Origin: Patescibacteria group bacterium
GTDB taxonomy: Bacteria > Patescibacteriota > Dojkabacteria > GCA-002793355
Direction of reading: 5' to 3'
Length of the DNA: 64,000 nt
Assembly (NCBI GenBank): GCA_016860985.1
Contig: BOKM01000001.1
Coordinates: forward strand, 719,462 to 783,461
Part shown: one piece after another, positions 6,313 through 63,264 of the stretch
Numbering within the stretch: the first letter of the stretch is position 1
How the letters are laid out: the number at the start of each line of letters is the position of its first letter
Translations under genes and position numbers: made by a program
The notes under the pieces: model-generated
Seen by the model: only the letters and a program-made list of their open reading frames with translations
The model's database searches: none
Told to the model about the DNA's origin: nothing

Positions 6313-7764
6313 GTGAAAAAGCATTTGGCAACGGTACTTTTGGTAGTTGGAGCAATCGTTTACATGCTCTTGCTCACGAGAGGGTATGTCGGTTTGCATA
6401 GCGACTCAGTTGCCTACCTGTCGGCTGCTGAAAACCTTGTGACAGGAAGAGGGCTTACAATTTATCGATTGTTTGAGAACTCTACGCCACTTTCGAGTTT
6501 CCCTTTTTTGTATCCAATCCTACTTGCTCCTTTTCGTAGTATGCCACTCTTTGGTATTTTTCTTTTAAACTCGATTAGTTTTTTTATCTTCTCTCACTCA
6601 CTAATTAAAATAATTACATTACTGGTTAAGGATTCAAGTAAGTTGAAGACAGCCATTCTTTATGCACTAGTTGTTGTTGGAGCTCCAATAATTTACGCTT
6701 ACTCGATGGCATTAACGGAGCCACTTTTTCTGGCTGCAGTTTTCTTTTTATTACGTCTGATTCTAGAAGGGAAGTTAGAAGGCAAACGCTTGTTTGTCGT
6801 AGTCTTGCTCTCTTCGTTATTACCTCTTTTGCGCTATGCAGGTGTGTTTGTATGGCTTTTTGTCGGAGGTTTATTACTTGTTCAAGCAGATTCGCTAAAA
6901 CTCAAAATAAAGCATGTTGCAGTTTATAGTTCATCCTGTATTCCTTTGCTCTTATGGTTCTTGTACTTACGTTCTCTTGGTGCGGAATCAAGGCAGTTAG
7001 TTTCTGATCCCTTAACTCTTGATTTCTTAGTGGTTGCGGCAAAAACAATGTGGATGTGGGTGTTTCCTGCTGGAACTCTCGGACTTGGTATTGGCAGCGC
7101 GTTTTTAGTGGTGGCTGCCTACGGTATGTATTCCTCGTTGAAAAATAAGAATAGAGAAGCAGTAATTCTGCTCTGGTTTTTTACTTCGTATATTCTGTTT
7201 ATTATTGCGAGTTACGCCTTTTTTGATAGAGCAATTGCCTCTGATTTCCAGAGAATACTTACTCCACTTTTTCCAATTGTGATTATGCTTGTTGGCGCAG
7301 CGCTTTTTTCAATCACAAAGGTGTGGGTACGGCGTGTAGGAATAGTCCTGCTTTCGGTAATGGTAGTGTCGATTCATATGGGAACTGGCGTAAAATTGAT
7401 TCAAAATGGTCCACCGTTATCTTACAGAACTTGGCAGAAAAATGATTTGGTCGCGTATGTTAGGGAGAATAGAGAAAAATTCAATTTTGTAAGTAATGCG
7501 TGGGAACCACTGTATGTGTATGCAGGTGCTTATGTAGATAGAATACCCGTAAAAGGGCAAGAAAAACGAGATAAGACTACGGAATACTTTAAACGCGCAC
7601 TAGATCGAGATAAGCCCTTGGTCTTTGTGTTCGCAAAAAATCACCCAAAGTTTAATTATCTGAGTAGTCCCGAGTCGCTTGGGGAATTTTATGAGCTCTC
7701 GCTGCTCGAAGAGTTTCCTGAAGGGACGGTCTACCAAATTCAAGAGAAAAGAGATGTCCCGTAA
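6313..7764 (+). CDS. GT-C fold membrane glycosyltransferase-like protein (ArnT/PMT-like) with C-terminal soluble domain
   Basis: GTG start. The N-terminal segment LTRGYVGLHSDSVAYLSAAENLVTGRG resembles the first-loop acidic motif of lipid-carrier-dependent GT-C enzymes. Multiple TM helices precede a roughly 130-aa hydrophilic C-terminus. Confidence 0.4.
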   Translation: MKKHLATVLLVVGAIVYMLLLTRGYVGLHSDSVAYLSAAENLVTGRGLTIYRLFENSTPLSSFPFLYPILLAPFRSMPLFGIFLLNSISFFIFSHSLIKIITLLVKDSSKLKTAILYALVVVGAPIIYAYSMALTEPLFLAAVFFLLRLILEGKLEGKRLFVVVLLSSLLPLLRYAGVFVWLFVGGLLLVQADSLKLKIKHVAVYSSSCIPLLLWFLYLRSLGAESRQLVSDPLTLDFLVVAAKTMWMWVFPAGTLGLGIGSAFLVVAAYGMYSSLKNKNREAVILLWFFTSYILFIIASYAFFDRAIASDFQRILTPLFPIVIMLVGAALFSITKVWVRRVGIVLLSVMVVSIHMGTGVKLIQNGPPLSYRTWQKNDLVAYVRENREKFNFVSNAWEPLYVYAGAYVDRIPVKGQEKRDKTTEYFKRALDRDKPLVFVFAKNHPKFNYLSSPESLGEFYELSLLEEFPEGTVYQIQEKRDVP

Positions 7765-7803: not shown

Positions 7804-8223
7804 ATGGCAAAGAGAAAAACAGAAGAAACAATTATCAATGTGGTTCGAAAACCAGTGCCATATGAAATGGTCGTCGTTTTCAAGCCTTTTTTACCCGATA
7901 AAGTCCGCAACGAAGCAGACTCAAAGGTAGAGCAGATCATTACTGATGCAAATGGATCAGTATCCCTCAGAGATATCTGGGGTAAGCGATATCTTGCATA
8001 CGAACTTGATAAGCATGTAGAAGGATACTATGTAATGTATCAATTCGAAGCACCTGCAGCATCAATGGATGGTATCAAGAAGTTGATGAACCGACATCAG
8101 GAGATCCTCCGATATTTGGTCATCAAAAAAGATGCAAAAGAAGGCACAGCAACAAAGATAAAAGTTAAAAAAACAATTACTCGCGAAGAGTCGGAAAGCA
8201 AAAAGAAAGTGAGTAAGTCATAG
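7804..8223 (+). CDS. rpsF: 30S ribosomal protein S6
   Basis: YEMVVVFKP...WGKRYLAYEL...GYYVMYQFEA matches the S6 core. The true start may be the GTG at 7842 (MVRKPVPYEM...). Confidence 0.85.
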   Translation: MAKRKTEETIINVVRKPVPYEMVVVFKPFLPDKVRNEADSKVEQIITDANGSVSLRDIWGKRYLAYELDKHVEGYYVMYQFEAPAASMDGIKKLMNRHQEILRYLVIKKDAKEGTATKIKVKKTITREESESKKKVSKS

Positions 8224-9344: not shown

Positions 9345-10616
9345 ATGGAATCTACTGCCCAGTCCAGTCGTAAAACAACGTTGTATCTTTCTGAATTGGC
9401 TAACGGATTGGTTTTTACGTTGGCTATAAAAGATACGAAAACTGGGGAGCATGAAAAGCATGTTTGGAAAACCTCATATCCTCTGCTCGATTTGCTCTAT
9501 CCACATTGGGTGCCGAAGCGATCAGTAAATACACCAATCAATTTTCTTTCTCAGGCAATTACTCAAGCTGGTGCTGCCTTTGGCTGGAAGTTAGTTACAG
9601 AAAGTGGTCGCTTTATAGTTCCTGAAAAGTCGTTTGGAGAAGGCTTAGACCGTGTTAGCATGCTACAGGAAAGTTCCACAAACGGGCTTGTTTCTGGAAT
9701 TGTGTCAGACAAGTTTGTCAGTACGGTAAAGCGAAAAGATCTTTCAATTGGAAAACTCCTTTTGCAGGATATCGAAGGGACCACTGAACCCGTGGTGGTC
9801 GTTGTTGCAAACTTTTATTCGATTGAAGTAATCGAATGTATTCCTAGAATAGTTGGGAAGATGCGGAAATGGGAATACAAATCGTCAAAAATTCAGTATG
9901 CAAACGAACAAGAATTTGTCGATATGCTTGCCACCAAAAAGTTTCTGCCTTTTGTTGGCGAACACATGCCAGAAGGGCAGATATTTAACACTTTGCTTAA
10001 CTATATCTACTGGAGACCTCTCACGACCTCATCTCAAATGGTTCGAGATATTTGGCGGGCATTATTAACGTCTCAACTCATCGAATTAGGCAAGTATTTA
10101 TCTGTACAGCAGTTTGATAAAGGGCATGTGTATGTCACGGGTGAGGTTCCGTTGTTTGTGCATGACAATCCTCGTTTGCAACTTGCCGTGGTTGATGGAC
10201 TTGGTTTATCGGGTGCGTGGACTGTTTTAGTAGACGAGCATTATCAGATGTTACCGTTTCTTGCCGAAGGAGAAGAGAATAACGTTTTCAATGAACTATC
10301 GGCTGAAAAATGTAGTTTGTGGATAATTCCTCAAATCAAAAAGCAAAAAAGTATCGTAAAAGTTAAGTCCGGAGATTCGGAATACCAAGGAGTTTACGGA
10401 AATTTGTATACATATAGTATCCGGAGTAAGTCCCACGCCTTTGAGTATGATATAGATGGCCAAAAATCGACATTCGAGCTCCCTAAATATTGTAACGTGG
10501 CATCTGTAACTATAGATACGCGAGAGTGGCCGGTGGTTTATGGCCCAAATACAGTTGCAAACAGTGTAAAAATTCCGCAATGGATTGATAGAATAAGAAA
10601 ACAGATAAAAACATAG
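9345..10616 (+). CDS. hypothetical protein (423 aa, soluble, no recognisable motifs)
   Basis: Long open frame with no TM segments; inserted between rpsR and rplI. Confidence 0.5.
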   Translation: MESTAQSSRKTTLYLSELANGLVFTLAIKDTKTGEHEKHVWKTSYPLLDLLYPHWVPKRSVNTPINFLSQAITQAGAAFGWKLVTESGRFIVPEKSFGEGLDRVSMLQESSTNGLVSGIVSDKFVSTVKRKDLSIGKLLLQDIEGTTEPVVVVVANFYSIEVIECIPRIVGKMRKWEYKSSKIQYANEQEFVDMLATKKFLPFVGEHMPEGQIFNTLLNYIYWRPLTTSSQMVRDIWRALLTSQLIELGKYLSVQQFDKGHVYVTGEVPLFVHDNPRLQLAVVDGLGLSGAWTVLVDEHYQMLPFLAEGEENNVFNELSAEKCSLWIIPQIKKQKSIVKVKSGDSEYQGVYGNLYTYSIRSKSHAFEYDIDGQKSTFELPKYCNVASVTIDTREWPVVYGPNTVANSVKIPQWIDRIRKQIKT

Positions 10617-10620
10617 GACT

Positions 10621-11535
10621 ATGGAAAGAGTAGTAACACGAAAAACAATACAAGTGGTCGGTGCTTTTACCTCTGCACAAAAAATTGGAAGTGTTATTAG
10701 ACCAAATGACACTCTAGGTCACACACGTGTGCCGGTCGTACTCGAGGTTCACTCTTTAGAGAATGGAAGGGTACTGGTAGACGACGGAGTCTTTGTAACA
10801 GCACAAACGCCTTTAGTTGAATACAAGAGAGGTTTTCGCCGTGAAATTGTTGGCTCAATGCATGAGGGTATCGTAAGGATTAGTAAAAATGCGGTCTCGC
10901 TTGTTGCAGAAGATACAGAAGAGCCAGTTGTAAGCACTTTGTGGGGGCGAGTGATGTCGGTCGCTGAAAACTCTTATACGGTCGAAGTTAAGTACTTAAA
11001 AATGCCGATTTTTGTCTCTCGAGGATTTAAAGTAGAGGCACCATTACACGGGTTATTGCAGAAGGGGGCAATAACTGCACCACATCATATAAATGATGAA
11101 GTTCGCGAAAAAATCGTATTACTGCCTGGAGCAGTAACCAAAGAAACATATCACGAGATTATGAATAGAGGAGCGATGGGTGTACTTGCTCCTTCGGTTG
11201 ATTGGAATGATTATCTTGATATCTTTTCCAATCCAAATGGGAACATCGGTATTTTACACGGCTTTGGGATGTTCCCCTTGTGGCGGTGGTACTATCACTT
11301 ACTCTCAAAGATGCACAACGTACTTGTTGAGGTAGATTATGCTAATTCGTATTTGTACATTCCTATCAGTGATATACTTATGGGAAGCTTAGAGCAGGAT
11401 TTACTCCTTTTCAAAGAGTATTGGTGGGGCAAACAGGTAAAATCGTTGCAACACGAATCGGGTGATTTAATTGCGACCTTAGAAACAGGCGAGCAAACTC
11501 CCGTTATGGCAGAAGAGCTTTTTAATATTAGGTAA
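10621..11535 (+). CDS. hypothetical protein (304 aa)
   Basis: Begins 4 nt after the previous gene. Beta-rich N-terminal half; no recognisable motifs. Confidence 0.5.
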   Translation: MERVVTRKTIQVVGAFTSAQKIGSVIRPNDTLGHTRVPVVLEVHSLENGRVLVDDGVFVTAQTPLVEYKRGFRREIVGSMHEGIVRISKNAVSLVAEDTEEPVVSTLWGRVMSVAENSYTVEVKYLKMPIFVSRGFKVEAPLHGLLQKGAITAPHHINDEVREKIVLLPGAVTKETYHEIMNRGAMGVLAPSVDWNDYLDIFSNPNGNIGILHGFGMFPLWRWYYHLLSKMHNVLVEVDYANSYLYIPISDILMGSLEQDLLLFKEYWWGKQVKSLQHESGDLIATLETGEQTPVMAEELFNIR

Positions 11536-13568: not shown

Positions 13569-14840
13569 ATGGAGTCAAAAGAAAAGCAACCAGTTGCGCC
13601 GACCACGGCGCAAAAAGAAACAGTAACCCCTAAAGTTGAAACCCCAGTAGCAGCGAAACCAGTTAAGAAAAAACGCCGAGGTGGCGCCATTTTGTTTGTA
13701 CTTTTTCTAATCTGTGGCTTTGGTACTTTATTCACGATTTTTGGTGTTTATGTCGCACGCTCTGTTGTTCCTGAAATTCAAAATTGGTTAGTGAGCCATA
13801 ACTTTGTGGCTACACCTAATACGAATAATGGCCAAGACAAATCTCCATTTGTTCCTCAGAATAATGATTCAATTGGAAAAACTGGTGATGCCCTTACAAT
13901 CCCGCAGGTAGTAAAGAAAGCTTCACCTAGTGTCGTGAGTATCGCAATTGCAGGTGAGCAAAATCCCGTTCCTGGAACAGAAGGGGAGTTCGACAAAATT
14001 GGTACCGGCTTTATCGTTGATGCAAAGGGAATTGTGGTAACAAATCAACATGTAGTTCGAGATTTAAAGGCAGAATATCAAGTAATTACACAAGATAATA
14101 AATCGTATAAGGCAAAAACAATCGTACGCGACGAAGTCAACGATATTGCAATTATTGTGGTAGATGCAAACGACCTTCCTGCTTTGCCAATTGGTAACTC
14201 CGCTTCAATTGAAGTAGGGGAGACCGTTATTGCCATAGGCACCCCACTTGGTGAGTATCCCGGAAGTGTAACCGTTGGCGTTATTAGTGGAGTAGGGCGA
14301 TCAGTCAGAACAGGGGACGGGTTTTGGGAAGCAGCGAAAGAGTACGAAAACGTATTACAGACAGACGCTGCAGTAAACCCAGGTAATTCTGGTGGTCCGT
14401 TATTGAACTTGTTTGGAGAAGTTGTTGGGGTAAACTTTGCGACCACAAGTGGCGCAGATAATATCTCATTTGCTTTACCGATTGATATCGTTGCACAACG
14501 AGTAAGTGAGTATAAACAATATGGAAAATTCAGAACACCGTACCTTGGAGTAAATTACCGAATGGTATTGGCACAAGAGGCAGAGTTCTACAATGTCGAG
14601 CCTGGTGCTTTGGTCAGAACTGTTGCAAAAGACTCCCCAGCAGAGAAAGCTGGCTTACGGGTTGGAGATATTATCACCAAAATAAACGGTAAAATGGTGA
14701 CAACAAGTCTTGCAGCAACACTCTCAAGAAATAATGTTGGCGACGAGATTAGTATTACGATAGTAAGAACGAGCATAACTGGTAACTCTGAAACCGTCAC
14801 GCTTAAGGCAACACTTTCAGAAAGACCAGCGTCAGAGTAG
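13569..14840 (+). CDS. HtrA/DegP-family serine protease with PDZ domain, membrane anchored
   Basis: N-terminal TM helix; trypsin-fold motifs TNQHVV (His), DIAII (Asp) and GNSGGPLLN (Ser); C-terminal PDZ. Confidence 0.85.
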   Translation: MESKEKQPVAPTTAQKETVTPKVETPVAAKPVKKKRRGGAILFVLFLICGFGTLFTIFGVYVARSVVPEIQNWLVSHNFVATPNTNNGQDKSPFVPQNNDSIGKTGDALTIPQVVKKASPSVVSIAIAGEQNPVPGTEGEFDKIGTGFIVDAKGIVVTNQHVVRDLKAEYQVITQDNKSYKAKTIVRDEVNDIAIIVVDANDLPALPIGNSASIEVGETVIAIGTPLGEYPGSVTVGVISGVGRSVRTGDGFWEAAKEYENVLQTDAAVNPGNSGGPLLNLFGEVVGVNFATTSGADNISFALPIDIVAQRVSEYKQYGKFRTPYLGVNYRMVLAQEAEFYNVEPGALVRTVAKDSPAEKAGLRVGDIITKINGKMVTTSLAATLSRNNVGDEISITIVRTSITGNSETVTLKATLSERPASE

Positions 14841-15641
14841 GTCGCTGATGCAATTCTGATCCTTATATTCTGTGCAAAAACGCTGAATCATTTTGCCTTC
14901 TGTATCGTTATACTCTAAGAAAAAACTGACACTCTTTTGGTTGCTCACCAAAGTATCAAGGTAGTGCAGCAAATTCTTAAGTAACAACGGTTGAACAAGT
15001 AATGCATGCTCGGGCTCATAATCTTTCACTGATGAAGGTAGAACGTCAAAGTGCTTCTGTTGAATATATGGAGGATTTGCGAGAACGACAATATGTGACG
15101 AGCTTGGAACTATAGGGATACTGCCATTTTTGGGAAAATCACTGCATTTTAAAAATTGGATTCTCTCTTTGACTCCGTAGAATACGGCATTCTCTTCCGC
15201 AGTTGCTACTGCTGTTTCCGAATCATCGATTGCAATTATTGGCGTGACATATAGTGTCGTTTCGAGTGCCATGGTAATTGCAATTGCTCCCGAACCCGTA
15301 CCGATGTCGATAACGGTAACATCTCCCTTGTTTGGGATTTCATCGAAGTGTAGGAGCGCTTGTTCAATCATTTTTTCTGTATCGAACCTGGGTATCAATA
15401 CATTTCGGTTAACATTAAAGTATCGTCCAAAAAACATCGCTTTCCCAACGATATATTCAATTGGCGTTTGCTGCGAAATAAGAAACAATAGGTATTGAAG
15501 TTTGCTTGATTGATTTGCGCTGAGTGGTTCGGTAGAGTAATCGAGGGCAAGGTGAGATATAAGTTCCTGTAGGTAACTTTGCGGATAATCGGCACTCTTT
15601 AGTGCAGCTGAGAGTACCCCAATAGCTTGGTTATTCGTCAT
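14832..15641 (-). CDS. prmC: release factor glutamine N5-methyltransferase PrmC/HemK
   Basis: SAM-binding IDIGTGSGAIAI and the NPPY motif (VLANPPYI). Start MTNNQ at 15641 overlaps the prfA end by 11 nt; the listed ORF extends to 15707. Confidence 0.8.
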   Translation of the reverse strand: MTNNQAIGVLSAALKSADYPQSYLQELISHLALDYSTEPLSANQSSKLQYLLFLISQQTPIEYIVGKAMFFGRYFNVNRNVLIPRFDTEKMIEQALLHFDEIPNKGDVTVIDIGTGSGAIAITMALETTLYVTPIIAIDDSETAVATAEENAVFYGVKERIQFLKCSDFPKNGSIPIVPSSSHIVVLANPPYIQQKHFDVLPSSVKDYEPEHALLVQPLLLKNLLHYLDTLVSNQKSVSFFLEYNDTEGKMIQRFCTEYKDQNCISDLL

Positions 15642-16734
15642 CGTCGCCACCTTCCTGAATGCCTTTTTCTGCAATAAGGTTTCGCACATCGGAGAGCACA
15701 GCTTCAATCTTTCCGTTCATTACTTCGTTGATGTTAAACCAAGATTTTTTTACACGATGGTCGGTTACTCTGCTTTGAGGAAAATTGTATGTTCGAATCT
15801 TTTCTGAGCGATCACCTGTTCCAATTTGTCCTCGGCGAAGGTCACCCATCTCTTTTGTTTGTGCTTCAAGTTGCGCTTGGTAGAGTTTTGACTTCAAAAT
15901 TCGCATTGCTGCGTCTTTGTTTTTAAGTTGTGAACGTTCGGTTTGCGAAGAAACGATAATCCCACTTGGAACATGTCGTAAACGAACTGCAGAAGAAACT
16001 TTATTGACGTTCTGCCCACCTGGTCCACTTGAACGGAATGCCTCCATTTCCACATCTCTTGGATCAAGCTTTACATCTACATCTTCAACTTCTGGAAGAA
16101 TTGCAACACTGATGGTTGAAGTATGAATTCTGCCTGAGCTTTCTGTTGCGGGAACTCGTTGTACTCGATGCACACCGCTCTCGTATTGCAGCCAGAAATA
16201 AGCATCATCACCTTCAATATATGCGTCTGCGTGGCGAAAACCACCTTGTTCGGATACTTCGCTGTCGGTTAATTCAACTTTCCACCCTCGTTCAACTCCA
16301 AATTGTTGGTACATTCGAAACACCTCTTGAGCAAAGAGTGCAGCTTCTTCACCGCCTGCTCCCGCGCGAATTTCCATGACTACGTTTTGGAATTTTGAGG
16401 TTTCGCTCATGTGAGAATCGTAGAGCTTTTGAATTTCAGGGTTTCTTTGCGCTACTTCTTGCTGAGCTAATTCAATGAGTAATGGATCAGTTGATGCTCC
16501 AGAGAGTATTTTTGTCGCGTCAAGATAAGCACTAACCGATGCGCCAAGAGATAGTAACCCTTCTTCTTGTTGAGAAATTTTACTCAATCTCTTGTGTCCC
16601 TGAATATAATCATCAGAAGAGAAGTCAGTAATGGATTCAAGCTTTTCAGTTAAATCCAATCGTTCTTGCTTGAGCTTTTTTGTTTTCTCATTAATCTGTG
16701 GTTCAAGGGCAACAATATCAGACTGCGTTAGCAT
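15631..16734 (-). CDS. prfA: peptide chain release factor 1
   Basis: GGQ motif (SGPGGQNVNK) and the RF1-type PAT tripeptide (VQRVPATESSGR). Confidence 0.9.
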   Translation of the reverse strand: MLTQSDIVALEPQINEKTKKLKQERLDLTEKLESITDFSSDDYIQGHKRLSKISQQEEGLLSLGASVSAYLDATKILSGASTDPLLIELAQQEVAQRNPEIQKLYDSHMSETSKFQNVVMEIRAGAGGEEAALFAQEVFRMYQQFGVERGWKVELTDSEVSEQGGFRHADAYIEGDDAYFWLQYESGVHRVQRVPATESSGRIHTSTISVAILPEVEDVDVKLDPRDVEMEAFRSSGPGGQNVNKVSSAVRLRHVPSGIIVSSQTERSQLKNKDAAMRILKSKLYQAQLEAQTKEMGDLRRGQIGTGDRSEKIRTYNFPQSRVTDHRVKKSWFNINEVMNGKIEAVLSDVRNLIAEKGIQEGGDDDE

Positions 16735-16986: not shown

Positions 16987-17006
16987 AGGTGAATTATATC
17001 ATATTA

Positions 17007-19040
17007 TCAAGACTCAAGACCAAGTGCTTGCTTGGCAATTGCTGCAACTTCTTCTTGAGGGACGCCGTCACAATTTTTATCGACGGTTTGCATTCCAAGA
17101 GATCTGCATGCATCAATTAATCCATACTTCCAGTCAACGTACTGCCAGTATCGAGAAGGTCGCTGCCCTTGAAGGTAGTCAAATTTCACATGAACGCGTT
17201 CGTTTGTTTCTTGAAGATGTATTCGTACGAGTTCTTCTAACGCTGCAAGGCTCTCTGCTTTTCCGAAGGTTTCCTTGATTGCCTCAATCGCTGCTTGTGA
17301 TAGTAACCCGCCCTCGAACTGAAAGTAAGAAGTAATGAGCGATGGTGCATTGTTGAGAACGAGGCTTTCGTGAACATCTTTTTCTACAACTGGTAGTTGT
17401 TGTAAGGCGTTACGAATGAACTGCGCGATTTGGCGTACTGCAGCTGTGTGTTCAGTTGGAATCATTCCAAGAGTTTCATTGCCGGTTGCGAGTACGTCTT
17501 GAATAAAAGACTGAACCGCTTTGTCTGGTTGAAGCGAACTCGCTTCGACTATTGTGGTGAGTCGCTCTTTTGCAGCATCAGAGAGTTTTCCGGTTTCCGG
17601 ATTAATTTCTACAAGTGCCGCTAGGGTAGGTGCGTTAGAAAAATCAATGCCGACTAGTTCATCTGCGCGAATATCACCTTTTGTTTTAAAACTAAAGGCA
17701 GCACGACCTAAGGTTCGTACCGCTGCTGTCTGTTCAGAAATCATTTGATAGAACAATCCGCCGAGCTTTTCTTTGTCTAAGTATTGGAATAGGTATTCTG
17801 CCTGTTGTTTATTTCTTGGAGCGCCGTCAAGTACGATAGGTTCGTGAATCCTGCCTTGCTCGTCAAGTTTGCGTCTTGTTTCAAGCATGATATCGGCAAA
17901 CATAACCGTAAGCACTTTATTCGGAATCTGAACGCCACGGCTTCTTGGTCTGTCAAAGCCCCGCATATAGTGTTCGTACTGATCATACCAACTCATTTTC
18001 TCAATAAATTCTATTGGTGAGGGCTCTCGCTCTGTACTGTCGTTTTCTGGTTCCCCCCATCGCAATTCTTGCCCATCCATCATTTGTACTTTGATTCGTT
18101 TTCGGAGTACTTCGTCTAGGTCTGCAACCTCGTCGCGTGTTTTTGTGAATGTTTGGCCGTCTTTTTCTATGACGACTTTTTCAATTCCTCTGCCTGCGCC
18201 ACCTTCTGTACCTGATGCGGCGATTACAAGTTGTAAAATATCTCCTGTTGTTCCTTTTCCTGCTGCTGGTGGGCCAGAAATAACGGCAATATTTTTTTTA
18301 CGGGGAATGTATTCGCCGGATTCTGGGTTGTAGGCATAGTCAAGTGCAAAACTCATTTGTTTCAAGTGTTCTTGAAGTTTTGCTTCGTCGATAGAAGCAT
18401 CTAATTCTCGATAATATTGAAGTTGTAATTCGGTAGCAATATCTTCACACAGTTTATAAAGTGGCGTATTCTTTTTGATGTTTACAGGAGGATATTTATC
18501 TGTTGTTGCGGTATTGTCGAGTGCAAAACCTACTTCTCGCGCAATGTATTGAAGTGCAAGTACTCGTTCTTCCGGTACTTCAGTTGCCCTCCATATTGGT
18601 TTGATTATTTCTTCACCAAGCTGAATGTTGTTTACGTAATCCGTTACAGGAAGCCCAATCATGTCGGCTTCGCTAAGGTCAGGAATGGCAGAAACCATTT
18701 GTGCACGTTCTCGGACTGCTCGAAGTAGTGCAGCGTACGCGGTTGCTATAGAATCTGCGGTGAATCTTGATTCAGGCGTTTTTTCATCATTTGATAACCC
18801 ATTCGTTGTTTCCCATAATAACGTGAATTTTCGTGACCGTGATTCTTTTATTGAATAAAAGGGGAGTTTGCCACCAAATAGTGTTTCTTGTCGAGTTAAT
18901 GGATCCAAAACGATTCCAATCGCCTCTCTTGCCGTATATGGCGCTGGTTTGCTGTTAGCGTCAGAACTAAACGGCGAGTGTGTTACACCGTCGTAGACAT
19001 TTTCGCTGTGGGCAGTGGCTGTTTTCTTTGTACTTAACAT
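17007..19040 (-). CDS. large hypothetical protein with embedded adenylate-kinase-like (NMP kinase) P-loop domain
   Basis: 677 aa. The central segment NIAVISGPPAAGKGTTGDIL matches the ADK P-loop GPPGAGKGT, and IVLDGAPRNKQQAEYL about 150 aa later resembles the ADK LDGFPR motif. Long N- and C-terminal regions are unrecognised. First gene of the rpmE-prfA-prmC co-directional array. Confidence 0.45.
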   Translation of the reverse strand: MLSTKKTATAHSENVYDGVTHSPFSSDANSKPAPYTAREAIGIVLDPLTRQETLFGGKLPFYSIKESRSRKFTLLWETTNGLSNDEKTPESRFTADSIATAYAALLRAVRERAQMVSAIPDLSEADMIGLPVTDYVNNIQLGEEIIKPIWRATEVPEERVLALQYIAREVGFALDNTATTDKYPPVNIKKNTPLYKLCEDIATELQLQYYRELDASIDEAKLQEHLKQMSFALDYAYNPESGEYIPRKKNIAVISGPPAAGKGTTGDILQLVIAASGTEGGAGRGIEKVVIEKDGQTFTKTRDEVADLDEVLRKRIKVQMMDGQELRWGEPENDSTEREPSPIEFIEKMSWYDQYEHYMRGFDRPRSRGVQIPNKVLTVMFADIMLETRRKLDEQGRIHEPIVLDGAPRNKQQAEYLFQYLDKEKLGGLFYQMISEQTAAVRTLGRAAFSFKTKGDIRADELVGIDFSNAPTLAALVEINPETGKLSDAAKERLTTIVEASSLQPDKAVQSFIQDVLATGNETLGMIPTEHTAAVRQIAQFIRNALQQLPVVEKDVHESLVLNNAPSLITSYFQFEGGLLSQAAIEAIKETFGKAESLAALEELVRIHLQETNERVHVKFDYLQGQRPSRYWQYVDWKYGLIDACRSLGMQTVDKNCDGVPQEEVAAIAKQALGLES

Positions 19041-19170
19041 ACGCCACTTTGATTGAATTCAGTCGGTAATTATACCCGTATTACTATGATATTGCAACGC
19101 GTGAATTGTTATGTCTTGACGGTGCAAACCTGTACGCTGGGCCTGTTTTGTGGGGTTTTGAGGTTTAGTG

Positions 19171-24329: not shown

Positions 24330-25550
24330 ATGCAGCGCGCGCGACGATTTGGAAAACCTCAAACAAAGAATGTGTGGACTCCACAGAAAAACGTTGATCT
24401 TAGGGGATTGCGGTCTACAGCGAACTTTGCACGAGAACGTGGAGCAAAAATAGCGGCAACAAAGGCAGCACGTTTTTTTAAAGCGCTAGTAGTTGTAGTC
24501 GTTGTCGGAGTACTTTTTATAGGAGCAATTGGGTTTGCCGGTATGATTGCGTACTCAATAAAAAGTGGCGAGGAGTTGAACTTAAAAAAACAATTTACCG
24601 AATTGGTAAAAAAAACACCGTTGAGATCATTCTTAGGTGAGCAGCCTTCAGAGCAACAGTCACTTCAGGTTATTGGTTTGCAGAATATACCTGAATATCC
24701 CGAAAGCACCTTTGTTTTTGCGGATTATGTCGAAAGAATAGGAAGTGATGGATATCAGATTAAGGAAAAAGTTTTGTCGGCAAACGACGCTCAAGCGCTT
24801 TACACATTTCTTGCAAGTGGGCAGAGTGTATATAGGTTGCCCTTGAACGCTGAGTGGGAAGATATCCAAAGCTTTTATCGAGCTAAATTGTCCGAATTAG
24901 GATGGAAGACAGAACGTTCTGTGGCAGTTTCAGAAACAGAATATATTCCTGGTGACTATTACACAAAAGATGGAAAAGGGTTGCATGTGTATTCGGTCGC
25001 TTCTGATATATGGTATGAGGTTATTACTCAAGCGCAGGCGGAACAAGGTCTGCACGATAAAATCGTTGCGTATAAGGCAAAACAGGAACTTGTTGCTGCA
25101 GCTTCTGGTAAAGACCTGCCTGTTTCGGCAGAATGGCAACTTCGGTACTCAAGGGATTGGGAGGTCGAGTTGCAAAAAAATCCAATTTTTGGTGTAAACA
25201 ATGTCATCTTTACACATGATTCATCAAAAGAGAGGTTATTCATGTTGGTCGTAGATAGATACCGTGAGAATGTTGCGGATATCACCTATAAACAGCTAGA
25301 AACCTATGGGGTTAACTATATTTCAACCTGGCTTACAACGCAGCAAACAACTGTAACATTGCAAGGTTTTACCCGCACCGAACGTGAAGTGGCCAGCATA
25401 AAGGCGATGGAGTTTAGTGACGTTAAACAATCTGCGCACTTTCTAGTACTTGTGAATCCCAAGAACAGTATGGTGTATGTATTTCAATACATTGGAAAAG
25501 AGAACCCAGAGTTTTTTGAATATGTGAAGGGAAACCTAAAAATCAGGTAA
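24330..25550 (+). CDS. hypothetical membrane-anchored protein (basic N-terminus, 1 TM, large extracytoplasmic domain)
   Basis: Long open frame; hydrophobic segment ALVVVVVVGVLFIGAIGFAGMIAY. Confidence 0.45.
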   Translation: MQRARRFGKPQTKNVWTPQKNVDLRGLRSTANFARERGAKIAATKAARFFKALVVVVVVGVLFIGAIGFAGMIAYSIKSGEELNLKKQFTELVKKTPLRSFLGEQPSEQQSLQVIGLQNIPEYPESTFVFADYVERIGSDGYQIKEKVLSANDAQALYTFLASGQSVYRLPLNAEWEDIQSFYRAKLSELGWKTERSVAVSETEYIPGDYYTKDGKGLHVYSVASDIWYEVITQAQAEQGLHDKIVAYKAKQELVAAASGKDLPVSAEWQLRYSRDWEVELQKNPIFGVNNVIFTHDSSKERLFMLVVDRYRENVADITYKQLETYGVNYISTWLTTQQTTVTLQGFTRTEREVASIKAMEFSDVKQSAHFLVLVNPKNSMVYVFQYIGKENPEFFEYVKGNLKIR

Positions 25551-45171: not shown

Positions 45172-45257
45172 GGGCAGGTGGTGGAATGGCAGACACGGAA
45201 GACTCAAAATCTTCTGCGGGTTACCCCCGCGTGAGGGTTCGACTCCCTCTCTGCCCA
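45172..45257 (+). tRNA. tRNA-Leu (anticodon CAA), class II with long variable arm
   Basis: Hand-folded cloverleaf: acceptor GGGCAGG/TCTGCCC, anticodon stem GAAGA/TCTTC with loop CTCAAAA, variable arm GCGGGttacCCCGC, T-arm GAGGGttcgactCCCTC, discriminator A. Confidence 0.8.
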
Positions 45258-46537: not shown

Positions 46538-47620
46538 TTGCGTATGAGATTAGACATGTATCTACAAGAAGCGATAGAGAAGGGATATGGAATTAAGCTC
46601 TCTCGCTCCTATATTGAACGAATTTTAGAAAGTGGAGCAGTCTTATTTAACGACGAAGTTATCAAGAAGAAAGGCTTTGATTTTGATCCTGCTAAGCAGC
46701 TTCCTGTATTGATCGAAGACAAAGTAAAAAACATTATCTCAGTCTACCGTACTGGCAAGAAGCAAGATGAAGAAGCTGGCGCTTGGGATGCAAGCGAAAT
46801 GGGGATCGAATTAGACGAATATAGAGTTCAAAAAGCAGCTGATATACGTCCACGAATCATTTTGGAAACAGACGATATTATCGCGGTCGATAAACCCCAG
46901 GGGGTATCAAGTCACCCCGGAAAGGGAGACCGTGGTGCAGACAGTATGGTGTATCAATTTATCAAATACATGCGCGAAGCTCATAAATATATTCCTCGTG
47001 CAGGTTTACTTCACCGTTTAGATAAAGATACACAAGGCATCCTCCTGTTTGCAAAGAATATGGAAACCTATAATGAGGTAAAATCTCAATTTGAAACTCG
47101 CGGGATTAGTAAATATTACCTTGCTGTTTGTGAAAAAACACCGCGAATGCACGCTTCTTTGACTCAACATCTTTCCTACTTAAAAAAAGCGACGAAAGGT
47201 TCCAAAACCTACAGTGAATACGCAACGACAGAAGAATTGGTTGCAGAAGTAACCTCTTCGCAACGATCCCTTAAGCTAGAAGGGTATATAGGAAGGCGAA
47301 AAGGAACTCCATATATGGTTTATACCCCAGATTCTCACACCGCTCGTGCTCTTGTTGGATCCAAATCGTGTGTAAGTGAAGTATTTGTTATTTCCGAATC
47401 TGACTCTGAAGTACAACTCTTATTCAAACCACATACAGGCAGAACACATCAAATCAGAGCGCAGGCAAGATACCTTGGTGCACCAGTGCAAAACGACCGT
47501 GTATATGGGAACAAAGATACCCTTGGGGGTACAATGAAGCTGTGTGCAATTGCTGTTTCATTGACTCTAAAAGGAGAACAGCAGCAAATCTCGTTGCCGC
47601 TTCAGAAAATCTTCTCGTAA
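46538..47620 (+). CDS. RluA-family pseudouridine synthase (RluD-like, with S4 domain)
   Basis: S4-like N-terminus and the catalytic motif RAGLLHRLDKDTQGILLFAKN. Confidence 0.8.
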   Translation: MRMRLDMYLQEAIEKGYGIKLSRSYIERILESGAVLFNDEVIKKKGFDFDPAKQLPVLIEDKVKNIISVYRTGKKQDEEAGAWDASEMGIELDEYRVQKAADIRPRIILETDDIIAVDKPQGVSSHPGKGDRGADSMVYQFIKYMREAHKYIPRAGLLHRLDKDTQGILLFAKNMETYNEVKSQFETRGISKYYLAVCEKTPRMHASLTQHLSYLKKATKGSKTYSEYATTEELVAEVTSSQRSLKLEGYIGRRKGTPYMVYTPDSHTARALVGSKSCVSEVFVISESDSEVQLLFKPHTGRTHQIRAQARYLGAPVQNDRVYGNKDTLGGTMKLCAIAVSLTLKGEQQQISLPLQKIFS

Positions 47621-50753: not shown

Positions 50754-51251
50754 GGTAGAGGGGTGTGGATAAGTATAGACCTATAGTGTACATATCCCAT
50801 AGTAATCAGTCTGGCTATTTGTATCTTTTATACAAATATATGGAGGAGTGGCTATTCCTTCGATGTTCTTTCAGAAATATAAGGAAATTCCAAAAGAAAA
50901 GAGTGATAATTTTTCATATTCTACTCTAAATGTTGTGCCTTACTTCATATCGGTGCATGCAGTGCTAAAGTGCCAAAATTGTAAGCGCTTTTAGATTGAG
51001 TATAATCTCCCTTATACGCAGTCGAAACCTGTCAAGGTGGGAGTAGTGCCCTATTTACGGTTGTTACAAACAAAAAACTTATTTCAAAATATTTTCGCAG
51101 TAATTCTCTATTATGTTTATTAAATTTGTAATTTTTTCTGAATTTCGACGGAAAGTCGCCTTTTCTTCGGTTCTCCCTCTCGCGGCCGGCTGTTTATCTT
51201 TTGACTCCCCTGCCTCACACTTTGGCTGAATCTGCGCTATACTGTGAAGGA

Positions 51252-52382
51252 ATGAGAAAAATATCCATACAACAGCTGATGGAAGGCGATAAAACGCCCA
51301 AACTTGAGCGACAAAACGAGTACCTGTTATCTCTTTATAACGACGATTACAGCGACGAAACCGTTTATAATTACAATAGGGATCTATCTTTCTTTGCAGA
51401 ATATCTTTTACTTTCTAATACATCTTTTGAAAATATCTCAAAGTTAACGATTACGTATTACAAAGGATGGCTTAAGGAGAGAAATCATATTCACCAGAAG
51501 GTTCACGAACAAGAAATGGCAAAACAAGATGGTGATGGTAAGAAAAAGCCCCAGAATACCGTTGAAACGCGTAAAAACGCCTCAAAATCAAACGATGTAG
51601 CTTCAGTTGATCAAAAGGACGTTAAAAAACTGCAAAAAGGAGGCTTTGTGAAGAATAACAACCCAGAACAGCTTGATGCACTTTCTATTAATAGAATTCT
51701 AGTTGCTCTTAGAAATTATCTTCGATTTTTAGTCGAGTATGATTATCCAGCTCCAATTGCACCCGACGCAGTCACCTTGGTTCGACTTGCAAAAAAGAAA
51801 CCTCAGGTTCCAAGCCTAGATGAAGTAGTCGCTTTGGTAGAAGCTCCAACACATTACGAGGCTGTTTCTATCATTGCCCTGAGAAACAGAGCAGCGCTTG
51901 AACTTTTACTTGCTACGGGTATGCGTATATCAGAAGTAGTGAGTATAAACAGAGATCAAATAAACGGCGAGGGAAAACTTTTGGTTAGGGGTAAAGGGCG
52001 CAAAGATAGGTTTGTGTATCTAACGCCACGAGCAGTGGGGCACGTTCAGGAATACCTGAAAAATAGAGTAGACTCCTACCCTGCTCTTTTTTTACCAACG
52101 AGTGGAAGGCGCTTAAAGGGCAATGATCCCCGAATTTCAACCAATTATCTGCAAATGAAAATCGCCTATTATCGACGGATGCTTGAGATCGTTGTTCCAA
52201 TTAGCGCGCATACAATTCGTCATGCATACGCAACGTATTTGGTCGAAAATGGCGCCAATCCTGCAGCAATTCAGATCTTGCTTGGGCACGAAAGCCTTCA
52301 AACAACGACAAAGTATGTACATGCAAGCGATAAATATGCAGAGGAAACACACAAAGAGTTTCATCCAGCAATGGATGAGTAG
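51252..52382 (+). CDS. tyrosine site-specific recombinase, XerC/XerD-like, with lysine-rich insertion in the N-terminal domain
   Basis: GMRISEVVSINRDQI...VRGKGRKDRFVYL...HTIRHAYATYLVENGANPAAIQILLGHESLQTTTKYVH gives the R..HxxR..Y catalytic signature. Start MRKISIQQ at 51252 follows GAAGGA. Confidence 0.8.
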   Translation: MRKISIQQLMEGDKTPKLERQNEYLLSLYNDDYSDETVYNYNRDLSFFAEYLLLSNTSFENISKLTITYYKGWLKERNHIHQKVHEQEMAKQDGDGKKKPQNTVETRKNASKSNDVASVDQKDVKKLQKGGFVKNNNPEQLDALSINRILVALRNYLRFLVEYDYPAPIAPDAVTLVRLAKKKPQVPSLDEVVALVEAPTHYEAVSIIALRNRAALELLLATGMRISEVVSINRDQINGEGKLLVRGKGRKDRFVYLTPRAVGHVQEYLKNRVDSYPALFLPTSGRRLKGNDPRISTNYLQMKIAYYRRMLEIVVPISAHTIRHAYATYLVENGANPAAIQILLGHESLQTTTKYVHASDKYAEETHKEFHPAMDE

Positions 52383-60339: not shown

Positions 60340-63264
60340 CTAACTCGCCAACCCCGTCACTTCGTCTCCTTCTGCAATTCGGAATACTTTTACTCCATAG
60401 GTTTGTCTGTTTGCAAGTACCGGAATGCTTTGGAAGTTGGTTTTGATTACTTGCCCCTGTTTGGAGATAAGTATTACCTCTTTGTCTTCGGTTCTTTCGG
60501 CATCAGGGAATATTCGGGCTACCCGCAGGTTACCTGTTTTGCCTCCAATCTTTGCAGCAAAGATGCCTGTGCCACCTCTGTGTTGTTGCTTAAACTCAGA
60601 CAATGCGGTGCATTTACCAAAACCTTGTGCAGACACAGTAAGGAGTAAGTCGGTCTCGCTAGAGACAACGTCGAAGGAGATAACTTCGTCATCTTTCTTC
60701 ATGCTAATGCCTTTTACGCCCATTGTGTTTCGGCCACTTTCTTTCACTTCTTTTTCGGCAAAGCGGATAGATTTTCCTTTTTGTGTGACAAGAATAAGCT
60801 CGTCTTTTGCTGTAGTAAGTTGGGCCTGTACCAATCGGTCCCCTTCTTTAAGAATTATGGATACGAGACCGTTCTTTCGGATGTTCTCATATTCATCGAG
60901 TGCGGTTTTCTTTACGATTCCGTTGGCAGTTGCCATTGCAATATATTTGCCATCAGCTCGGCTTTGTAACGAGAGCAATGAGCTGACCACTGTATTTGGA
61001 GTGATTTGCAATAAGTTCACAATTGGAAGACCCTTTGCAATTTTCTTTGCTTCTGGAATCTCATAGCCACGTAGTTTAAAGACTTTACCATCGGACATAA
61101 ATACAAGGAGCCAGTCGTGAGTATTACACAATAACGCATGGTTAACGTAATCATTTTCTTTGAGTTTTGCACCGATGCTTCCTTTTCCGCCTCTGTGCTG
61201 TAAGCGGTATTCTTCTGGAGATACTCGCTTGATATAGCCGGACTTGCTGATGGTTACAAAGGTTTGTTCGTTTGCTACCAAATCTTCTTCTTGTGGTTCG
61301 TCGACGTCACCTTTGTAGACTTTTGTACGTCGCTTATCTGCGTATTTCTCTTTGACTTCGAGTAGGTCGGTTTTTACTAACTCAAGAATTTTAATCTCTT
61401 CTGCGAGGTAAGACTCGTGATGTTTGATATTCTCAAGAAGACCGTTGTATTCATCTTGAATCTTTTGTCGTTCGAGTGCTGCCAACTTTCTAAGTTGCAT
61501 ATCGAGAATCGCTTGTGCCTGAACATCGGTTAGGTCAAAGCGTTCCATAAGCCCAATTTTTGCTTCGTCTGCATTCTTGGCTGCACGAATGAGTTTGATT
61601 ACTTCTTCAATAAAGTCGAGCGCTTTGAGTAAACCTTCTAAAATGTGAGCGTCGTATTTGTTTCTTGCGAGTTCGAATTCCAGTTTACGGATAATAACGG
61701 TCATTCGATGATCAAGATACAATTCCAAGATTCGCTTGAGGTTGAGTGTACGAGGCTGATCATCAACCAACGCAATCATGTTTGAGTTAAAGTTCATTTG
61801 CAGTGGCGTGTATTTGAACAGCTTCTGCATAATGATCTGTGGTGAGAAGCCAGACTTTACTTCGATGTAAATACGAATTTCGTTCTTCGAGGATTCGTCG
61901 CGGAGATCTTTTACGCCTTCAATCTTTCCGTCGTGGATTAGCTGTGCAATTTGCTCCATAAGTACAGCTTTGTTTACTTGGAATGGAATCTCAGTAATAA
62001 TAATTGCTTGTTTTCCACTGTTTGTTTCTTCGACAGTCATGACTCCGCGCATCTTTACCCGACCATTGCCGGTTTCGTACATGCTCAGGATATCTTTCTG
62101 GTTATAAATAACGCCACCGGTTGGGAAGTCAGGACCTTTAACGAATTGCATTAACTCTTGCGTGGTAACCTGCGAAATGAACTTTGGGTACAACGAAAGT
62201 ATCGGTGCTCCGTCAAATCCCTCTGCAAGTTTGGCTAAACTCTCTGTGTTTAACCCTAATTCGGCTGCGTTTTCAACTAATGTTCCTTCTTTGATAAAGA
62301 GTTCGAGCGCTGCGACTTTTTCTTTGAACAATGGGTCATTTGGCGCAATGTAATTGTCCCAGTACGTAAATGGCTCTGAGCTTAACAATTGAGGTACTCG
62401 TGTGTTTTGTTCTCTAAAGCTTCGAAGTAAATTGTATGCAGATTTTCCACCCCAGGTATTCCCTTGGTCGATCATGGAGATAAGCGCATCGATAAGTTCT
62501 CCGAGGTTATGTGGTGGAATTTTTGTCGCCATACCTACGGCAATACCACTCGTTCCGTTTGCAAGTAGGTTTGGAAACGCTGCAGGTAAAGCTACAGGTT
62601 CGTTTCGGGTTCCGTCGTAGTTGACACGGTATAGTACAGTTCCTTTGTCGATATCTTTTATTAATTCAACAGCTATTTTTGAATATTTTGCTTCGGTATA
62701 ACGCATGCTTGCTGCAACATCTCCGTCGATTGAACCGAAGTTCCCTTGGCCATGAACCAACGGATATCGCATGGTAAAAGGCTGTACCATGTTTACGAGA
62801 GTTTGATAGATTGCTTGGTCACCGTGTGGATGATAGTTACCCATTGCTTCACCAACGATTTTTGCGGATTTACGGGTTGCTCCAGTTGGCCAAAGGGTTA
62901 AATCTTTCATTGCAACGGTTACACGTCGCTGCGAGGGTTTAACGCCGTCTTTTACATCTGGAATGGCTCGATCAACAATTACGCTCATGGCGTAGTCGAT
63001 AAAGTCTTTCTTTAATTCGTCGGTGATTGATACAGATACTGTTTCTCCCGCTTTGAAGCCTGCACCGGTCGTGAGCATGTCACTAATGCCTTCGTTTGAT
63101 TCTTCGCCAATTTCAAGGTCACCAGTGGCAGTTTTATAGTCGTCTGACTCGAGCGAGTCTTGAGGTGCACTTTCTAAAGAGGTCGGCTCAGCAGCAGATT
63201 CTTTTATCTGTTCATCAATGAGGTTCTTTACGTCTTCTGGAATTGGTGTTTTGTCTTTTGCCAT
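60340..63264 (-). CDS. gyrA: DNA gyrase subunit A with acidic N-terminal extension
   Basis: DYAMSVIVDRAIPDVKDGVKPSQRRV, active-site AASMRYTEAK, and C-terminal beta-pinwheel repeats. A roughly 70-aa acidic low-complexity N-terminus precedes the conserved start. Confidence 0.9.
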   Translation of the reverse strand: MAKDKTPIPEDVKNLIDEQIKESAAEPTSLESAPQDSLESDDYKTATGDLEIGEESNEGISDMLTTGAGFKAGETVSVSITDELKKDFIDYAMSVIVDRAIPDVKDGVKPSQRRVTVAMKDLTLWPTGATRKSAKIVGEAMGNYHPHGDQAIYQTLVNMVQPFTMRYPLVHGQGNFGSIDGDVAASMRYTEAKYSKIAVELIKDIDKGTVLYRVNYDGTRNEPVALPAAFPNLLANGTSGIAVGMATKIPPHNLGELIDALISMIDQGNTWGGKSAYNLLRSFREQNTRVPQLLSSEPFTYWDNYIAPNDPLFKEKVAALELFIKEGTLVENAAELGLNTESLAKLAEGFDGAPILSLYPKFISQVTTQELMQFVKGPDFPTGGVIYNQKDILSMYETGNGRVKMRGVMTVEETNSGKQAIIITEIPFQVNKAVLMEQIAQLIHDGKIEGVKDLRDESSKNEIRIYIEVKSGFSPQIIMQKLFKYTPLQMNFNSNMIALVDDQPRTLNLKRILELYLDHRMTVIIRKLEFELARNKYDAHILEGLLKALDFIEEVIKLIRAAKNADEAKIGLMERFDLTDVQAQAILDMQLRKLAALERQKIQDEYNGLLENIKHHESYLAEEIKILELVKTDLLEVKEKYADKRRTKVYKGDVDEPQEEDLVANEQTFVTISKSGYIKRVSPEEYRLQHRGGKGSIGAKLKENDYVNHALLCNTHDWLLVFMSDGKVFKLRGYEIPEAKKIAKGLPIVNLLQITPNTVVSSLLSLQSRADGKYIAMATANGIVKKTALDEYENIRKNGLVSIILKEGDRLVQAQLTTAKDELILVTQKGKSIRFAEKEVKESGRNTMGVKGISMKKDDEVISFDVVSSETDLLLTVSAQGFGKCTALSEFKQQHRGGTGIFAAKIGGKTGNLRVARIFPDAERTEDKEVILISKQGQVIKTNFQSIPVLANRQTYGVKVFRIAEGDEVTGLAS

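Follow-up and report, generated by a model that had tools for sequence, protein, structure and literature searches.

A remodelled adenylate kinase-like protein encoded beside rpmE in Patescibacteria: remote homology, predicted fold and genomic setting

Background

A long open reading frame (ORF) in a 64,000-nt stretch of DNA from a member of the Patescibacteria (contig BOKM01000001.1 of assembly GCA_016860985.1, positions 719,462 to 783,461; the whole stretch is referred to as the window throughout) raises two related questions: whether a protein of 677 amino acids that carries sequence blocks reminiscent of adenylate kinase (ADK) truly belongs to that family and, if so, whether the position of its gene directly ahead of rpmE, prfA and prmC reflects a role in translation. 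A preliminary description, made from the letters alone, had proposed that the gene, here called X, encodes an ADK-like domain embedded in a larger protein and heads an operon with those three genes.

We report a computational analysis of X which finds the homology to be solid and the architecture unusual, does not uphold the operon link, and proposes a function that we infer for the protein. Patescibacteria have minimal genomes and are reliant on salvaged nucleotides, and X, a constrained protein with a heavily remodelled ADK fold, is a concrete candidate for gap-filling in their nucleotide interconversion. The family is recognised by no current profile library, and it shows the extent of domain insertion that the ADK scaffold tolerates at its nucleoside monophosphate (NMP) and LID hinges, a matter relevant to the groups that use ADK as a model of conformational dynamics. 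Should X prove to be an ordinary additional NMP kinase, the gain would be a modest one for annotation, together with the definition of a new family.

Results and discussion

Remote homology to adenylate and UMP/CMP kinases

X occupies positions 17007..19040 of the minus strand and is a complete ORF with an ATG start, listed as 677 codons and a stop, as first described; the two motifs that had drawn attention to it lie at residues 256–267 (GPPAAGKGTTGD) and 404–417 (LDGAPRNKQQAEYL). Compared as a single sequence with E. coli Adk, X is detected by its P-loop alone; a phmmer search of the window proteins with E. coli Adk returns no match, and the top match of X in a single-sequence search of the PDB is AK2 at an expectation value (E) of 0.045. 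The Pfam ADK profile matches X at E = 0.0047 with 17.5 bits, below its threshold of 26.8 bits, and the same weak match is present in all four close homologues; the Zeta_toxin profile gives no significant match to X. The NCBIfam adk profile TIGR01351 matches at E = 1.4e-7, with 31.3 bits against a cutoff of 168.

The comparison of profiles is more informative. With hhalign, a profile of four sequences aligns to ADK with a probability of 46%, and the profile of 26 family sequences aligns to three ADKs with a probability of 95.5% (E = 1.6e-8) over 120 columns, spanning Adk residues 3–130. The 26-sequence profile was needed to bring out the homology, the single-sequence comparisons with E. coli Adk finding just the P-loop. 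Run against the sequences of the PDB, the same profile finds little else than adenylate kinases, the best of them at E = 5.2e-8, and the alignment sets the family's 'iRpDD' against the 'IRSDD' of the ADK LID. On these profile comparisons, and on the fold described below, we take the homology of X to adenylate and UMP/CMP kinases to be real and the P-loop and LDGxPR blocks to be products of true remote homology, rather than a chance likeness in some other class of P-loop NTPase. What X has in common with the ADK and UMP/CMP kinases (PF00406, TIGR01351; the short-LID AK1 and yeast uridylate kinase) comprises the P-loop GxPxxGKGT, the (L)DGxPR...Q block, a short LID that opens with RxxxR and contains RxDD, the arginine of the C-terminal helix, the order of the strands and the overall fold.

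One predicted fold with two insertions

An AlphaFold2 (AF2) model of residues 195–677, built from the 26-sequence alignment, reaches a predicted local distance difference test score (pLDDT) of 85.5 and a predicted template modelling score (pTM) of 0.70. A Foldseek search of the PDB with this model places AK1-type adenylate and UMP/CMP kinases at the top, with a probability of 1.0 and a target TM score of about 0.5. The best matches (5xru, 1uky, 2c95 and 1z83) are short-LID enzymes of these two kinds; their E-values of only about 2e-3 are attributable to the insertions, and zeta toxins and thymidylate kinases rank lower. The Foldseek and PDB profile matches also include the AK7, AK8 and AK9 proteins of eukaryotic cilia (9d2f_A, 9fqr_G8), in which, as in X, ADK domains are housed in large proteins. 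Unlike X, however, these eukaryotic proteins have ADK domains that are canonical, uninterrupted and above the family thresholds, and nothing indicates a common descent of the extra regions. An earlier AF2 model from four sequences had a pLDDT of 52 overall, with 78–88 for residues 100–170, and a fold search with its N-terminal region returned only noise.

The model shows residues from about 247 to 677 as one ADK-type fold, with a five-stranded core, P-loop, NMP-binding region and short LID, into which two subdomains are inserted. The kinase module had first been placed at residues 240–470 or so, and this has to be revised, since the ADK fold starts near residue 247 and continues to the end of the protein. 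Of the two unrecognised flanks of some 250 amino acids that had been reported, the N-terminal one (residues 1–246) is indeed additional to the kinase; the C-terminal one resolves into the second insertion and the end of the core.

In the following outline all positions are on the minus strand, and values of dN/dS, the ratio of nonsynonymous to synonymous substitution, refer to an orthologue 93% identical to X. Residues 1–194 (18459..19040) form a clade-specific N-terminal region, predicted to be disordered at 1–96 and helical at 100–175, with dN/dS 0.07 and with neither a Pfam match nor a fold match. Residues 195–246 (18303..18458) are a family-wide alignment block, modelled as a helix pair (YYxxxDxxIDExKL) and a beta-hairpin at a pLDDT of 86–96, with dN/dS 0.02; the near-invariant R247 follows directly. 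ADK lacks both the N-terminal helical domain and the conserved pre-kinase helix pair. Part 1 of the kinase core, residues 247–287 (18180..18302), aligns by hhalign to Adk 3–40 and contains strand 1, the P-loop GPPAAGKGT (residues 256–264; 18249–18275), the short helix 1, strand 2 and the glycine-rich loop SGTEGGAGRG. Insertion 1, residues 288–345 (18006..18179), then interrupts the NMP-binding region with what the model renders as a beta-hairpin, a long helix and an acidic disordered loop. Core part 2, residues 346–466 (17643..18005), aligns to Adk 41–130 and comprises what remains of the NMP-binding region (FDRPR, IP), a helix carrying R389 and D393, strand 3 with the block LDGAPRNKQQA (residues 404–414; 17799–17831), strand 4 and the short LID, whose conserved columns R442, R446, R458 and D460 lie at 17658–17717. 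Insertion 2, residues 467–625 (17166..17642; dN/dS 0.06), is a mostly helical subdomain between the RxDD of the LID and the last core helix. Core part 3, residues 626–677 (17010..17165), is again an alignment block, modelled at a pLDDT of 91–95, with the SRYxxY helix (630–647) that carries R630, a strand at 651–656 (VDKNCDG) and a C-terminal helix at 662–672.

The doubled spacing between P-loop and LDG block that the preliminary description had pointed out is borne out by these data: the distance from the P-loop lysine to (L)DG is 143 residues in X and 71 in E. coli Adk. Insertion 1 accounts for it. This insertion is confined to the window clade, that is, the four close homologues, in which the distance from the P-loop lysine to (D/S)G is 143–156 residues as against 78–97 in the other 22 family members (78–81 in most). 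An insertion after the LID, on the other hand, is found in every family member, at variable length: the distance from RxDD to SRY is 172 residues in X, 88 in P0004 and 55–125 in the other members, compared with 11 in Adk. The family thus departs from ADK in having an obligatory insertion behind the LID, to which the window clade adds a second one in the NMP region.

An intact gene under purifying selection

A protein of this composition could in principle be an artefact, either two genes fused into one ORF or a decaying pseudogene. One metagenome-assembled genome (MAG) at NCBI does annotate X as two fragments, of 243 and 358 amino acids. These correspond, however, to residues 1–243 and 320–677, and since the P-loop segment is missing from both, the split is to be read as a frameshift or assembly error and not as two natural genes. 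Orthologues with an intact full-length architecture, of 677, 696 and 622 amino acids, are present in independent assemblies from Logan, ENA and NCBI, and both halves of the protein are required for the kinase fold of the AF2 model. The overall dN/dS against the 93%-identical orthologue is 0.049 and lies between 0.02 and 0.07 in every accessory segment, while core parts 1 and 2 have no nonsynonymous change at all at a synonymous divergence (dS) of 0.43 and 0.54, respectively. X is under strong purifying selection, and an artefactual origin, which these data rule out, has in our judgement virtually no chance of being correct.

The product of X is acidic, and a hydrophobicity scan found no segment that reaches transmembrane level, for which reason a secreted or membrane protein was rejected. 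Its sequence predicts a soluble cytoplasmic P-loop phosphotransferase descended from the adenylate/NMP kinase family.

A small point of annotation concerns the 696-amino-acid orthologue P0003 (locus L002, 8001–8027), where the called TTG start overlaps the gene's own promoter-like TATAAT box; an ATG nine codons further on is probably the true start, and the protein would then have about 687 amino acids.

The putative active site

Conservation was counted over the 26 family sequences, which share approximately 20–30% identity. Invariant among them are G256, G261 and K262 of the P-loop (K262 being the counterpart of Adk K13), G406 (Adk G85 of the LDG), R442 (Adk R119), R446 (Adk R123), D460 (Adk D158) and R630, whose equivalence to Adk R167 is drawn from the motif and the topology of the model. 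R409 (Adk R88), Q413 (Adk Q92) and R458 (Adk R156) are conserved in at least 90% of the sequences, so the LID arginines, which it had been proposed to check, are conserved along with the catalytic ones. At least 90% conservation also holds for R247, T264, G277, T278, G283 and P408. I372-P373 corresponds to V59-P60, the wall of the AMP pocket in Adk. The fourth glycine of the P-loop is alanine in the window clade and glycine in most other members.

Other features are peculiar to the family. The helix that bears R36 in Adk (STGDxLR) gives way to a glycine-rich loop, (E/S)TGT(D/E)GxxGRG, in which G280 is invariant and has no Adk counterpart; R389 and D393 are invariant and family-specific, and D363 and R366, kept in most of the 26 sequences and invariant in a 12-sequence subset, are likewise new conserved charges. 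The alignments show an ATP-side machinery that is intact (K262, R442, R446, R458, D460 and R630) and an acceptor site that is intact in part (R409 = R88, Q413 = Q92, I372-P373 = V59-P60).

Function and acceptor

We predict that X is catalytically active, as an ATP-dependent phosphotransferase whose acceptor is NMP-like, a reading to which we give an even chance of being correct. X would bind ATP and pass its gamma-phosphate to the acceptor, with the LID and NMP regions closing as they do in ADK; the N-terminal region and the insertions, which differ greatly between lineages, would be accessory and serve regulation, partner binding or oligomerisation. A number of observations weigh against this prediction. 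X falls below the curated ADK thresholds of both Pfam and NCBIfam, and the removal of both insertions in silico brings the Pfam ADK score only to 21.5 bits, as against the 26.8 required. Conservation in the family does not extend to the AMP-site helix with R36, and R284, which hhalign places two positions away from that arginine, is absent from about 8 of the 26 members. The Mg-related aspartate of the LDG (Adk D84) is serine in most of the family and, finally, the large insertion adjoining the LID could either obstruct the acceptor site or redefine it.

Given the replacement of the R36 helix and the new conserved charges R389, D393, D363 and R366, the acceptor may differ from plain AMP. One way in which this could be so is that the acceptor has changed altogether, to a small molecule other than a nucleotide or to a macromolecule such as a protein, an RNA end or, as with zeta toxins, a cell-wall precursor, with the insertions and the N-terminal domain forming a new site. 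We consider this unlikely. The glycine-rich loop and the new charges speak for it, as do the insertion of 45–170 amino acids adjoining the LID in every member and the fast divergence of the positional orthologues, N-terminal architecture included, whose cores are 20–23% identical where the RF1 proteins are 70–74% identical. So too does the appearance of zeta toxins and AvrRxo1 as weaker fold matches (E 0.02–0.2). Zeta/PezT toxins and AvrRxo1, P-loop kinases that broadly share this fold, act on UDP-GlcNAc or NAD, and like X they are larger proteins with a kinase core and extra elements. X, however, has the ADK-specific LDGxPR and RxDD, and its residues equivalent to R88, to Q92 and to V59-P60, the wall of the AMP pocket, are conserved. 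No antitoxin-like small gene or cognate chaperone gene adjoins it, its neighbours being a TrmB-like regulator gene and rpmE. PADLOC and PHROGs have no match for X itself (P0018 matches weakly at best, E 0.0034), and a scan of viral contigs found no homologue.

Two more specific candidates were considered separately and rejected. A zeta toxin or toxin-antitoxin module was set aside on the lack of a Zeta_toxin match for X, the match in the core of P0018 being at E 0.13 and limited to the P-loop. A defence or phage gene was set aside on the PADLOC and PHROGs results, the lack of a relative in IMG/VR and BFVD fold matches that are insignificant.

A further reading, which we regard as rather unlikely, is that X represents a Patescibacteria-specific offshoot of the ADK fold with a new acceptor or role, either as a broad or alternative (deoxy)nucleoside monophosphate kinase that substitutes for cmk, gmk or tmk or as a factor that depends on nucleotides and uses its N-terminal domain and inserted subdomains to act on a macromolecular partner. 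In the Parcubacteria, another lineage of the candidate phyla radiation (CPR)/Patescibacteria, adk was reported in one analysis to be well represented and cmk, gmk and tmk poorly (PMC4508563), which makes X as a substitute NMP kinase a testable idea.

A rare, lineage-restricted family

Searched exhaustively with HMMER, 1.84 billion cluster representatives yielded 24 proteins (50%-identity clusters) at E <= 1e-3, with no canonical ADK among them. All are of 413–870 amino acids (677 in X), in comparison to a compact single domain of about 190–240 for ADK. A scan of 185,579 species genomes in GTDB with the 12-sequence subset gave one locus, in a Saccharibacteria MAG; a word-indexed protein search with the 26-sequence alignment gave nothing beyond the four close homologues; and a metagenome scan with RF1 as the query, which would reveal relatives with or without X, gave only two distant short contigs. 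The phylogenetic distribution, one of the checks proposed at the outset, is rare, patchy and confined to Patescibacteria with tiny genomes, a further difference from ADK along with the sub-threshold scores, the TGTxGxxGRG loop in place of the R36 helix and the frequent serine for the LDG aspartate. We found no description of the family in the literature on adenylate kinase in Patescibacteria or Saccharibacteria. The X family is a rare, previously undescribed, Patescibacteria-restricted and insertion-bearing ADK-like family, and X itself a fast-evolving accessory gene of a small Patescibacteria group.

These data bear on the idea that X is simply the housekeeping adenylate kinase of the organism, furnished with extra domains. 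In its favour are the complete set of ADK-type ATP-side and LID arginines and the label 'adenylate kinase family enzyme' that IMG attaches to some members (NCBI annotates the protein cluster of X as 'hypothetical protein'). No canonical adk is present within the 64-kb window or the compared homologue loci; the usual place of that gene is the ribosomal-protein cluster, and the window does not include that cluster. Against it, 24 clusters in 1.84 billion and one locus in 185,579 genomes are too few for an essential enzyme, X has diverged more than any other gene of its syntenic block in the comparison with locus L016 and is one of the most diverged genes in the remaining comparisons, and canonical adk has been reported to be well represented in CPR genomes (PMC4508563). 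We judge the housekeeping role to be very improbable, and an accessory phosphotransferase with an NMP-like acceptor remains the reading that we prefer.

Gene order and promoters

The window, whose genes include those for GyrA, ThrRS, DnaB, RuvA, SSB and L9, reads as chromosomal DNA of a small-genome bacterium; a RuvB-like P-loop ORF is also present, assigned solely by its GPPGLGKTT motif. Downstream of X on the same strand, and identified from the Pfam matches of the orthologous loci, lie rpmE (ribosomal protein L31; 16756..16986, minus) after a gap of 20 bp, prfA (RF1; 15631..16734, minus; also identified by its RF1 homologues) and prmC (14832..15707, minus; start uncertain). The nearest named relative of the prfA product is an RF1 from a Candidatus Dojkabacteria MAG (71% identity).

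The order X-rpmE-prfA-prmC is kept in six syntenic lineages, namely the close homologues and the divergent P0023 and P0028 (the latter of 413 amino acids, on contig CAZGEO010000001.1), whose cores are the 20–23% identical ones noted above, beside RF1 of 70–74% identity. Low identity at a conserved position can be explained either by very rapid divergence or by in-place replacement of X by another member of the family. The positional orthologues at loci L015 (1432–2865) and L016 (8001–9242) are 200–260 amino acids shorter than X.

Such conservation invites the suggestion that X is a translation-linked ATPase or nucleotide-dependent factor, by analogy with the ribosome assembly factor Fap7/AK6. 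X is on the same strand as rpmE, at a distance of 20–77 bp, in six lineages with RF1 proteins 70–83% identical, and a terminator between the two genes was not found, so that read-through from X into rpmE is possible. Yet the whole block of 15 kb is syntenic, from the TrmB-like regulator as far as L9 and past it. Other family members are flanked by mraZ and a gene for a solute-binding protein (the Saccharibacteria MAG and another contig), adjoin the gene for SHMT, or occur in assorted unrelated contexts, away from translation genes. With the block syntenic as a whole and other members elsewhere, the adjacency of X and rpmE is not specific evidence of functional coupling. The GKGT, LDGxPR and RxDD motifs are moreover the signature of true ADKs, and AK6/Fap7 is absent from the best 60 PDB profile matches. 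A precedent is provided by Bacillus subtilis, where the arrangement tdk-prfA-prmC lies close to rpmE, a nucleotide-salvage kinase gene beside the same three genes. The fold of thymidine kinase is unrelated to that of X, and the tdk case serves only as an indication that a kinase gene adjacent to rpmE, prfA and prmC need not have a translation function. A role in translation is thus highly unlikely for X, and on the phosphotransferase reading that we favour, its position would reflect inherited synteny and not a part in translation termination.

The promoters are in keeping with this. An extended -10 box, TGATATAAT (16993..17001, minus), lies 6 nt upstream of the rpmE ATG (16986), just past the stop codon of X, and its distance to that ATG is identical in all six lineages, including L016 with its spacer of 77 bp between X and rpmE. 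As the box is kept at 6 nt from the ATG, it is probable that rpmE-prfA-prmC is transcribed from its own leaderless promoter. X has a promoter-like site of its own, TTGCAA-17-TATAAT (19069..19097, minus), 28 nt upstream of the ATG, and X and rpmE-prfA-prmC are probably under separate promoters. Of the claim that X heads an rpmE-prfA-prmC operon, adjacency and common strand stand; the functional link does not, in view of the lineage-wide synteny and the promoter box that rpmE has for itself.

The leader of X (19041–19068, minus) carries AAGTGGCG just before the ATG, and this element, which is not a canonical Shine-Dalgarno sequence, recurs in the locus of a 45%-identical orthologue (L001, upstream of 8001).

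Minor observations

Leaderless-type starts, in which a TATAAT or TAGAAT box (often TGnTATAAT) ends 5–7 nt before an ATG without a Shine-Dalgarno sequence, occur in at least nine of the approximately 55 genes of the window, where a rough estimate of the chance expectation is 0.25. These starts are on the plus strand at 7804, 20015, 26042, 27638, 28262, 32538, 37982, 42098 and 49764, with probable further cases at 46544, 48067 and 36760, which suggests that leaderless transcription is widespread in this genome.

In locus L015 a transporter gene of the EamA/DMT family (472–1383) lies directly upstream of P0023 on the same strand, and another is located two genes ahead of P0013, where the context is unrelated (L011, 4569–5471; L012, 967–1869). 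This adjacency may be a link between uptake and phosphorylation in salvage, or it may be a coincidence.

The GyrA ORF of the window (60340–63264, minus; 974 amino acids) matches the topoisomerase domain in two stretches, beginning only at residue 99, which points to an extended N-terminus, a wrongly called start or an insertion within the domain. A gene for a tyrosine recombinase of the phage integrase family (51201–52382, plus), some 6 kb downstream of an 86-nt tRNA gene (45172–45257), could be XerC/D or the mark of an integrated element. Large ORFs of 304–483 amino acids without a Pfam match at E <= 0.001 are located at 816–2201, 6313–7764, 9345–10616, 10621–11535 and 24330–25550, and the last three of these have syntenic counterparts in related genomes at 45–92% identity.

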